From a virus (taxonomy: Duplodnaviria; Heunggongvirae; Uroviricota; Caudoviricetes), in IMG/VR virus record IMGVR_UViG_2700989173_000009: a stretch of DNA of 15,712 nucleotides, one strand, 5' to 3'. Below, piece after piece: positions 6,721 through 8,016 of the stretch. Made by a program: the position numbers and the translations under genes. How positions within the stretch are numbered: the stretch's first letter is position 1; every line of letters begins with the position of its first letter. The notes beneath the pieces are model-generated. The model saw only the letters and a program-made list of their open reading frames with translations, was not told the DNA's origin and searched no databases.

Positions 6721-6768
6721 TTTCCCGCCTGTTAATGTGCTCGCCAATATTCATTACCAGGCGGGAAA
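6721..6768. promoter_or_regulatory. Perfect 11-bp inverted repeat TTTCCCGCCTG - 26 nt - CAGGCGGGAAA upstream of the head operon
   Basis: Arms at 6721-6731 and 6758-6768 are exact reverse complements; no U-tract follows. Candidate activator/repressor site or RNA stem-loop. Confidence 0.45.
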
Positions 6769-6821
6769 ACGATCGGTGCGATTACTGATTTCCTTATGAA
6801 AAACGGTTGAGTGTTTGCCGC

Positions 6822-6858
6822 GTCCTGGAGTTCCTTACTTAACCCCAGGACTTTTTTT
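6822..6858 (+). terminator. Hairpin (GTCCTGG / CCAGGAC, 16-nt loop) followed by T7, ending exactly at the capsid ATG; candidate intrinsic terminator/attenuator that also sequesters the capsid Shine-Dalgarno (AGGA 6847-6850)
   Basis: Stem 6822-6828 / 6845-6851, T-run 6852-6858, ATG 6859. The only SD-like purines for the capsid start lie inside the 3' arm of the stem. Confidence 0.5.
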
Positions 6859-8016
6859 ATGCAGAGAATAATCGAATTACGCCAGCAGAAAACCGCCATT
6901 AAAAATCAGATGCGCGACATGCTGGAGAACGCTGAAAAAGAAAACCGCAGTCTTAACGATGCTGAGGGCGCAAAATTTGACGAATTACGCGCTAAAGCTG
7001 AATCCCTCGATAAAGACATTTCCCGCCTTGAAGCCATTGCAGACGAAGAGCGCAGCAAGCCAGGTAAAAGCAGCCAGACCACTGACCCCGCAGAACTACG
7101 TAACTACATTCTGACCGGTGAAACCCGCGCATTAAGTACAGGCGTTCCCGCTGATGGTGGTTATACCGTTATCCCTGAACTGAACACCGAAATCATGCGA
7201 ATGCTGGCGGATGAATCCACCATGCGTCGCATCTGTACCGTGAAGAAAATCAGCAGCAACGAGTTTAAGCAGCTTGTTTCCGCTGGCGGTGCGACCGTTA
7301 ACCACGGTGAAGAGGGTAAGGCACGCGAACAGACCAGCACCCCGCAGATTAACGAGGTGAGCATTAAGCTGTATCCGGTCTATGCGTACCCGCGCACCAC
7401 ACAGGAAATCGTGGATTTTTCCGATGTGGACATCCTTTCATGGCTGACGGGTGAGATTGGCGACACCTTCACGGAAACCGAAGAAAGCGATCTGGTTGTG
7501 GGCGACGGTGACAAAAAAGCAAAAGGTTTTTTATCCGTACCCCGTGCAGAGAAGAACGACAAAGAGCGTGATTTTGGTACGTTGCAGGTAATTAAACCTT
7601 CCGAATCTCTGGCGTGGACATCTGCGGACCCGCTGATCGACCTGAAATTTGCATTACGTAAAAAATACCGCAAAAACGCGGTCTGAGTGGTTAACTCCAC
7701 GACGGCGGCAAAACTTCAGAAGGTGAAGAACGCGAACGGTGATTATATCTGGCGCGACCGTTTACAGGCGGGTGATCCTGATACGTTGCTGGGCCTTCCG
7801 GTCGAATATCTGGAGTTTATGCCTGATAACGTTATTGCCCTGGGTGACTTCAAACGCGGTTACTACATTGTTGATCACGAAACAGGTGTTCGCACCAGAC
7901 CGGACAACCTGACAGAACCAGGATTCATCAAAATTTTCACGCAAAAATATTTAGGCGGTGGCGTGGTGGATTCGAACGCGATCAAGATTCTGGCACTGCC
8001 GGAAGACGACGATTAA
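6859..8016 (+). CDS. Major capsid protein, HK97 fold, with N-terminal scaffold-like delta domain; reading frame interrupted by one in-frame TGA at 7684-7686 (possible pseudogene or readthrough-dependent)
   Basis: Two ORFs in the track (6811-7686 and 7687-8016) are in the same frame and separated only by TGA. N-terminus MQRIIELRQQKTAIKNQMRDML... is a typical coiled-coil delta domain. The C-terminal segment (...GDYIWRDRLQAGDPDTLLGLPVEYLEFMPD...) resembles the conserved HK97-family C-terminal region. Protease and portal genes follow. Start at 6859 is preferred over the track's 6811 GTG. Confidence 0.8.

Follow-up and report, generated by a model that had tools for sequence, protein, structure and literature searches.

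A conserved leader with competing RNA pairings that probably gates capsid expression in capsid-forming phage satellites

The leader in front of the capsid gene

The stretch of DNA considered here, IMG/VR record IMGVR_UViG_2700989173_000009 (15,712 nucleotides (nt), referred to below as the window), is a capsid-forming phage-inducible chromosomal island (PICI) of the EcCIEDL933 type, a family of satellites described previously (10.1101/2022.09.08.507074). According to its Pfam domains, the gene set comprises an integrase, AlpA, a D5-type primase, an HK97 capsid, a protease, a portal, an HNH protein, TerS and TerL; head-completion and connector proteins are also encoded, and tail and lysis genes are absent. 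The capsid gene is the first of the packaging operon, and an earlier reading of the sequence alone (the sequence-only reading) had taken the DNA in front of it for the control region of this head operon, on account of an exact dyad and of a terminator-like hairpin that ends at the capsid ATG. The present analysis supports this assignment. The folds modelled for the leader and its relatives further suggest that competing RNA pairings between the promoter and the capsid gene, and not a helper signal, probably gate capsid expression. The leader and the capsid gene consist of the following features:

6664-6669, + strand: predicted -35 hexamer TTTACC, deduced from a conserved footprint
6686-6691, + strand: predicted -10 hexamer TATTCT (TAnnnT), deduced from a conserved footprint
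6697-6720, + strand: hairpin A (GUGGU-G-CCAG-GACG-CUGG-G-GCCAC), -15.6 kcal/mol, with covariation
6703-6711, + strand: CCAGGACGC, the 5' strand of hairpin A plus its loop, a candidate cis-acting antiterminator or anti-sequestor strand
6721-6768, + strand: hairpin B, made of 11 base pairs (bp), a U·C mismatch, 5 bp and a 14-nt loop, -22.6 kcal/mol
6771-6790, + strand: hairpin C, a weak, G·U-rich and lineage-specific stem, from folding
6820-6858, + strand: hairpin D and a run of seven U (U7); the 5' arm (GC)GUCCUGG contains an invariant CGUC and the 3' arm CCAGGAC contains the Shine-Dalgarno (SD) element AGGA
6859-8016, + strand: HK97-type major capsid gene, its PF05065 domain split over two open reading frames (ORFs)

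The comparison relies on 85 distinct leaders ending at a capsid-type ATG, collected by two scans of viral contigs, one with the capsid protein and the other with the pattern of hairpin A. Depending on the question, subsets were used: an alignment of 28 sequences for covariation, 49 non-redundant upstream regions for the promoter and 81 distinct upstream regions for the boxes located further upstream. A scan of genome contigs with the capsid protein gave 5 loci only, and the matches of a bare TTGTTC-repeat pattern in viral contigs were largely unspecific. The leaders belong to two main lineages, the EDL933 type with a diverged relative, L188, and a larger sister superfamily referred to as L170. 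All 85 share one module, in which a sigma-70 promoter is followed by a transcript predicted to start at hairpin A. The leader region of the window is 97-99.7% identical to that of islands located between roxA and phoQ in 358 of 5,426 complete Escherichia coli genomes, O157:H7 included, and near-identical to one Shigella flexneri locus; the window and the roxA-phoQ islands are colinear, with 93-99% identity across most of the length. A blastn comparison of the leader with 50,697 phage records returned no match. No family of Rfam 15 matched the window at its gathering score, and a search of 6300-7100 with E values up to 10 returned only noise, with bit scores of 12-18 versus gathering scores of 36-245. 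No prior account of the leader was found in Rfam or in the searched literature, which also held no transcript or small-RNA data on the island.

In front of hairpin A, the relatives have retained the footprint of a promoter predicted to be a moderately weak sigma-70 promoter. With the 49 upstream regions anchored on the first base of hairpin A, T-11, A-10, T-6 and T-33 are invariant, and T-32 and T-31 each occur in 48/49. The promoter of the window has a 16-nt spacer and matches 8 of the 12 consensus positions, for which reason it stays below the threshold of the promoter scan; in a relative (L003), the same scan does report the homologous TTTACA-16-TATGTT, whose end lies 6 nt upstream of hairpin A. 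Owing to this footprint, the transcript is predicted to start on the first bases of hairpin A, at about 6697-6700. A possible leader peptide starting at ATG 6681 (a 35-codon ORF across A and B) was discarded, since it begins upstream of the predicted start and is devoid of an SD; neither this ATG nor the length of its ORF is conserved in the relatives.

Conserved hairpins and a competing pairing

The predicted folding energy of the stretch 6670-6875 (206 nt) is -79.6 kcal/mol, versus -52.7 kcal/mol for shuffled sequences (z = -6.6). In the 28-sequence alignment, helices A, B and D together have 91.5% of their cells paired, versus 80.9% in shuffles, none of which (0/500) reaches the observed value, and 35-51% when the partners are slid. 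RNAalifold independently predicts A and B, with compensatory changes at 16 of 19 pairs. Hairpin A has a near-invariant sequence, and its 9 pairs, 6 of them with compensatory changes, are formed in 99.2% of the cells.

The dyad corresponds to hairpin B. Read directly, it is as exact as the sequence-only reading had claimed, with TTTCCCGCCTG (6721-6731) and CAGGCGGGAAA (6758-6768) separated by 26 nt, and an inner TAATG/CATTA extends it to 17-nt arms that are 94% complementary and 14 nt apart, the best inverted repeat of the 15.7-kb window. By our own estimate, chance alone would produce about 0.2 exact 11-bp dyads within 60 nt per 15.7 kb, so that such a dyad is weak evidence when taken alone, and about 0.003 of the 17-nt version. 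In every leader a long helix follows directly after hairpin A. It is built from 39 distinct stems among the 85 leaders (e.g., GGCCGUUUAA/UUAAACGGCC, GUCCACCUGG/CCAGGUGGAC and GAUCCCCCGG/CCGGGGGAUC), and its basal stem encloses a stretch whose length varies from 8-9 to 49 nt. In the alignment, both partners have changed at all 10 basal pairs. The helix is lengthened by allowing G·U pairs in 36 of 66 distinct cases, versus 10 of 66 for A·C, and this preference points to an RNA hairpin of the + strand and not to a DNA palindrome. Since the sequence of B is hypervariable and yet always paired, the dyad does not behave as a sequence-specific operator; the comparison points to a closed RNA spacer helix, devoid of any sequence-specific role, which would bring hairpin A next to the region of hairpin D.

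Binding of a dimeric repressor or activator to the dyad and/or to the palindrome of hairpin A (+1 to +24) consequently has to be weighed against these data, and appears extremely improbable. The exact symmetry of the dyad and the position of A, where operators often lie, would suit such a DNA operator, and concerted changes in half-sites can mimic covariation. However, close relatives carry unrelated B stems instead of conserved half-sites, the distance between the basal arms varies, and G·U is favoured over A·C. In addition, the loop and one strand of A are complementary, with covariation, to a site located about 110 nt downstream, which is not required of an operator.

The same two hairpins recall the put RNAs of HK022, of which putL consists of about 70 nt with two stems and is located just after PL (PMC9378689). 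A and B are two directly abutting stem-loops of 72 nt, lying at the predicted start of the transcript and upstream of terminators, and could in this way bind RNA polymerase directly, so that it would read through both D and the terminator found after the capsid gene. Such an action is nevertheless improbable: a stem as hypervariable as B, with an enclosed stretch of such changing size, is hard to fit with polymerase contacts through both stems, leaders of the sister family lack a terminator, and Rfam gives no match.

Hairpin C is a minor element; its AUCGGUG is retained in L188, and the whole hairpin is absent from the L170 family. Two further pairings, both outside the model presented here, were observed in the window. 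An A run at 6795-6803 can pair with U7 and the AUG, and is kept neither in L188 nor in the sister family. The sequence GATTATTCTC (6683-6692), which overlaps the -10 hexamer, is a perfect 10-nt complement of GAGAATAATC (6864-6873) in capsid codons 2-5; 9 of the 10 positions pair in L188 and the pairing is absent from the sister family. In transcripts reading through from upstream, it would bury the start of the capsid ORF.

Hairpin D was likewise found where the sequence-only reading had placed it, with GTCCTGG (6822-6828), a 16-nt loop, CCAGGAC (6845-6851), seven T (6852-6858) and the capsid ATG (6859-6861). The only SD-like element is AGGA (6847-6850), located in the 3' arm, 8 nt before the ATG. 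The burial of this element in the stem supports the earlier view that capsid expression depends on readthrough or on an opening of the structure. The folding check proposed for this region does yield the hairpin, at -14.1 kcal/mol; taken alone, a 61-nt stretch around it is modestly more stable than expected (z = -2.35, with 5 of 200 shuffles as stable), and it is the conservation and covariation in the relatives which place both the dyad and the hairpin beyond chance. As a terminator, D combines a 7-bp stem containing 5 G-C pairs with a U7 that follows directly, without any gap. Its loop counts 16 nt, or 8 nt given an inner 3-bp helix and a 1x1 internal loop, and is not the short loop of about 3-8 nt of a standard terminator; because this loop exceeds 8 nt, D is missing from the output of the terminator scan.

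Every lineage has a hairpin that stops 3-9 nt short of the ATG and whose 3' arm includes a weak SD. The arms GUCCUGG...(C/U)CAGGAC and a run of seven or eight U (U7-8) are kept in about 26 distinct variants of the EDL933 type and in L188, with differences at 11 of the 16 loop positions. The L170 superfamily possesses, at the same place, a different SD-sequestering hairpin (UGGUUUC-A-CGU...ACG-GAAACCA) without U run. As read from these sequences, SD sequestration is the common feature and the terminator-like U run an addition specific to the EDL933 type and L188, so that the notion of a terminator-like hairpin holds for these leaders and is not general. From its stem and U run, D may be expected to terminate transcription in vivo in this lineage.

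A transcript of about 160 nt ended at U7 might itself be a stable, trans-acting small RNA, a function compatible with the explanation favoured below and, in our opinion, highly unlikely. It would display a 5' hairpin and C/U-rich loops, UUCCUUA occurs twice in stretches predicted to be unpaired, and the ends of Hfq-binding small RNAs look like D with its U7 tail. The sister family lacks this tail, however, and nothing in the searched literature reports such an RNA.

The sequence-only reading had considered it plausible that head-gene expression is coupled here to a helper signal, which would imply a true terminator overcome by a helper-encoded antiterminator of the Q or N type. The stem and U7 are indeed terminator-like, and the succession of a promoter, a leader of about 160 nt and a terminator resembles the PR'-6S RNA-tR' arrangement of lambda. 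On the other hand, the U run is absent from the large sister family and the leader is without match in the phage records. Moreover, He et al. reported that tail-less capsids of capsid-forming PICIs are produced at high level without helper phages, and used alpA overexpression to drive EcCIEDL933 production (10.1101/2025.02.11.637232). Since capsids are made without helper, a helper-encoded antiterminator is not required; the proposed coupling is contradicted by these data, and a role for such a protein is very improbable. No Q-like antiterminator protein is encoded nearby, the AlpA of the window being a 62-residue protein of family PF05930. The antiterminator called AlpA in Pseudomonas aeruginosa was considered as a parallel and rejected, as it is an unrelated, larger, Q-like protein (PMC7969949, PMC9371919) and the shared name is coincidental: among solved structures, the sole match of the window AlpA below E = 0.1 is 8c3t, an AlpA-family phage regulatory protein, and no chain of the P. 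aeruginosa protein was matched.

That no antiterminator lies in the window, as had also been stated, no longer holds once RNA is considered, owing to the presence of a cis-acting candidate within hairpin A. Positions 6703-6711 (CCAGGACGC) form a perfect 9-bp complement of 6820-6828 (GCGUCCUGG), the 5' arm of D, and the CCAGGAC of the SD-bearing arm of D is also present in hairpin A. The resulting A:D duplex amounts to -20.5 kcal/mol, versus -14.2 kcal/mol for the D stem in the window. In the 85 leaders, the tetraloop of hairpin A, GACG (GGCG in two of them), is complementary to the invariant CGUC of the 5' arm of D, and the core GACG(N):(N)CGUC is paired in 28/28 aligned sequences. Next to the loop, three lineages differ in having U-A, C-G or G-C, and this position changes in step with a change inside the stem of A itself. 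Depending on whether 8 or 13 bp are counted, the alternative helix is paired at 96.4% or 94.4% in the 28 sequences, versus 27-66% when slid, and it covaries at 2-4 pairs. In the L170 family, the complementarity between A and D reaches 13 bp with two bulges. The leader thus contains the mutually exclusive helix that characterises attenuators.

Several observations weigh against a switch between the two pairings. In the window, the fold made of A, B, C and D is 13.5 kcal/mol better than a forced A:D pairing, with a probability of 1.0 for the D stem in the predicted ensemble; because of this gap, switching would need a factor or a kinetic effect. The covariation of the A:D helix comes from three lineages only, and its core GACG:CGUC is invariant and, as such, uninformative for pairing. 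Hairpin A uses its 5' strand to pair with D in the lineage of the window and its 3' strand in the sister lineage, so that strict homology cannot be claimed for the extended helices. A loop as long as the 16 nt of D is not typical of an efficient intrinsic terminator, a few natural variants have a weaker D stem with no compensating change, and the transcript start is a predicted one. With respect to the input that would be sensed, no conserved upstream ORF and no Rfam family were found, and no RNA-binding protein was recognised among the ORFs of the island. In the sister family, the two states lie closer, with a gap of about 4-7 kcal/mol in 5 of the 6 leaders tested and of 13 kcal/mol in the sixth, and the removal of 4-10 nt from the 5' end flips the fold in 3 of the 6.

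An alternative would be a static leader without any switch, in which A and B would stabilise the mRNA, the 5'-terminal stem-loop protecting it against 5'-end-dependent decay, and D with U7 would serve as a leaky terminator or insulator and as a structured ribosome-binding site, the U run being an A/U-rich spacer or a standby site. Expression would then be set only by the promoter and a constant partial readthrough. Apart from the stability of the A, B, C and D fold, by far the highest in the window, the location of hairpin A at the predicted 5' end and the lack of any sensor or trans-acting factor among the island ORFs agree with such a leader, as does a second partial terminator after the capsid gene, which fits a control of product ratios by leaky terminators. 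It leaves unexplained, however, why the GACG of the A loop and the CGUC of D are invariant and complementary in 85 leaders, why the bases adjoining them change in concert, and why a weak SD is kept buried before the most abundant structural protein. For these reasons, a static leader is regarded as rather unlikely.

As a whole, the data are best explained, with slightly better than even confidence, by an attenuator-like leader in which B is a spacer, D a terminator/sequestor and A:D an antiterminator. In such a leader, the sigma-70 promoter would start the transcript at about 6697-6700, and the RNA would fold into A, B, the minor C and D. Hairpin B, as a closed spacer helix, would set A beside the region of D and hold the competing strands together. 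Hairpin D would bury the SD and, in the lineage of the window, would stop, together with U7, a fraction of the RNA polymerases just before the ATG. Alternatively, the 5' arm of D would pair with the loop of A and its flank (6703-6711 with 6820-6828), a pairing that would dissolve the terminator/sequestor and free the SD. In this scheme A would act as an anti-antiterminator, A:D as an antiterminator or anti-sequestor, and D as a terminator/sequestor. Interconversion of the two states, as well as what shifts them, we infer from the modelled folds; our best guess for the trigger would be a factor that binds or melts hairpin A, or the capture of the open form by the 30S subunit, and not a helper-phage protein.

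A further-reaching possibility, which we put forward tentatively and hold as somewhat doubtful, is that the leader represents an undescribed class of cis-regulatory RNA switches specific to capsid-forming satellites, with hairpin A sensing a host or satellite factor. The loop of A would nucleate the strand exchange with the SD-sequestering or terminator arm across a spacer hairpin that varies freely. Also of this kind would be a direct action of A on RNA polymerase, as with put. If true, such a leader switch would control if, and at what time, the satellite produces capsids of its own, among them the reported tail-less particles that arise spontaneously and independently of a helper.

Upstream DNA and other parts of the island

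Apart from the leader, the following features are mentioned below:

1-1230: integrase gene
1605-1793: AlpA gene, encoding 62 residues (PF05930)
6578-6600, + strand: intrinsic terminator (GCCGGAgcaaTCCGGC and T5) closing the variable accessory region, from a terminator scan
6609-6615, + strand: TGTAAAT box, left edge of the conserved module, from its spacing in relatives
6619-6644, + strand: three TTGTTC direct repeats in 10-bp phase, at about -78 to -53 from the predicted start
8026-8057, + strand: terminator-like hairpin after the capsid gene, from terminator scans

The TGTAAAT box occurs 86-88 nt before hairpin A in 79 of the 81 distinct upstream regions, and 98 nt before it in the other two. 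The TTGTTC repeats are candidate sites for a DNA-binding activator. Depending on the element, the upstream repeats are of the TGTTC type, of the TGTAC/TTTAC/ATTAC type, or others. Recognition by AlpA was considered, but the type of the repeats in front of the capsid gene shows no correspondence with the AlpA sequence, and a role as a TerS (cos/pac) site was discarded because the same TerS cluster occurs with all repeat types; associations of the repeat type with other proteins are confounded by phylogeny. An early idea, in which the third repeat provided the -35 and TATTTT (6661-6666) the -10, has been replaced by the phylogenetic footprint.

TTGTT(C/G) repeats in 10-bp phase also occur on the minus strand at 1287-1322, just downstream of int, between int and alpA, and at the same position upstream of alpA a related island (L233, 806-916, minus strand) contains about ten tandem copies of TGCTGTTGAA. 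In addition, TGTTC-like repeats and GGTGTAGTTAATGGTGTAGT are common to both ends of the island, attL and attR (window 14109-14175; L001 898-960). These repeats at the att ends and next to int may be integrase-arm sites or AlpA/excisionase sites. A terminator-like hairpin, AAAGGCATGAAA / TTTTATGCCTTT, is also found between int and alpA, at 1417-1445.

Many relatives (L247, L282, L216 and other loci, here called type II) possess a further G+C-rich hairpin, placed between the repeats and the promoter at about 35-55 nt from hairpin A on its upstream side, with a T run that overlaps the -35. Its stems covary (CCCCUG/UGGGGG, AGCCCGA/UCGGGCU and GACCUC/GAGGUC), and from its sequence it looks like a terminator insulating the capsid promoter against upstream transcription.

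The genes located just upstream of the leader differ from island to island. In the window, a short PerC-like ORF adjoins the leader (6394-6555, 53 residues, with a PF06069 match at the cut-off score); PerC genes are annotated with 82-90 residues in related islands. The stem of the terminator at 6578-6600 is maintained through compensatory changes in L003/L004 and in L188. In the Shigella flexneri locus (L005), otherwise 100% identical to window 4222-6599, an extra gene of 74 codons lies at 2360-2740, flanked on either side by a copy of the terminator GCCGGAGCAATCCGGC, exactly at the place of the single copy of the window, and the same cassette is carried by O157:H7 islands. This terminator thus seems to mark a cassette boundary within the variable region. 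Just 3' of the primase gene, an inverted repeat (5611-5626 and 5670-5685; TACCCACTATCTACCC / GGGTAGATAGTGGATA, 16 nt, 94% complementary) is a candidate replication origin.

With respect to the capsid gene, the window contains an in-frame TGA at 7684-7686, where L001 and other relatives have TGG (Trp), and this codon accounts for the split of the PF05065 domain over ORFs 6859-7686 and 7687-8016. From the sequence, this copy of the island is predicted to be unable to make its capsid unless the TGA is suppressed. The hairpin at 8026-8057 probably sets the ratio between the capsid and the downstream products.

Relation to known systems

Capsid-forming PICIs package their DNA into capsids that they encode themselves, and their tail-less particles are released even when no helper phage is present; no account of how their packaging operon is switched on was found in the searched literature. 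The present analysis supplies a concrete promoter, a predicted transcript start and a conserved leader with two competing folds; hundreds of E. coli and Shigella genomes, as well as many related elements from viral contigs, have the same leader in front of the capsid gene. The control of satellite capsids is thereby reduced to a few directly testable mutations, and the operator reading of the dyad is corrected. The leader is also likely to determine the capsid yield of engineered PICI delivery vehicles.

Among the known systems, the PR'-6S RNA-tR' region of lambda with its Q protein resembles the satellite leader in that a late or structural operon lies behind a short leader ending at an intrinsic terminator. 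The satellite differs in that no Q-like gene, Q-binding element or pause signal was identified in it, its expression is phage-independent and its leader is absent from the phage records. The put RNAs of HK022 (PMC9378689), compared here by their description since the HK022 record bears no put annotation, also consist of two abutting stem-loops, of about 70 nt, at the start of the transcript (a predicted start in the satellite) and upstream of terminators; in the satellite, however, the second stem is conserved neither in sequence nor in size and the sister family has no leader terminator. It is the hypervariability of B which argues against a membership in the put family.

As in P4, with its Vis protein, and in other PICIs, an AlpA-family master activator coexists here with direct repeats upstream of a structural-gene promoter, with the difference that the AlpA sequence and the type of the repeats in front of the capsid gene show no covariation.

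The translation-inhibition stem of Mu mom, opened by Com, and the autoregulated scaffolding protein of P22 represent SD-sequestering translational operators. The satellite leader resembles them in that a hairpin, which has to be opened, hides the SD of a late or structural gene, and differs in that, according to the modelled folds, a cis-acting RNA strand, and not a protein alone, could open this hairpin. Since the capsid protein presumably carries its scaffold as an N-terminal delta domain, an autoregulation by the capsid protein is conceivable.

A likeness is also to be found with the attenuators of E. coli, e.g., trp and pyrBI, and with the protein-dependent ones of the bgl/sac type. Like them, the satellite possesses a promoter-proximal leader that ends in a hairpin and a U run before the first gene, and the 5' arm of its terminator has a stronger, alternative partner located upstream and itself held in a hairpin. 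Unlike them, it has no conserved leader peptide and no known ligand or protein, its competing strands are bridged by the hypervariable closed hairpin B and, in the sister lineage, the output would consist of SD access only, without termination. By analogy, the leader may thus be considered to work like a terminator/antiterminator attenuator combined with an SD-sequestering translational operator.

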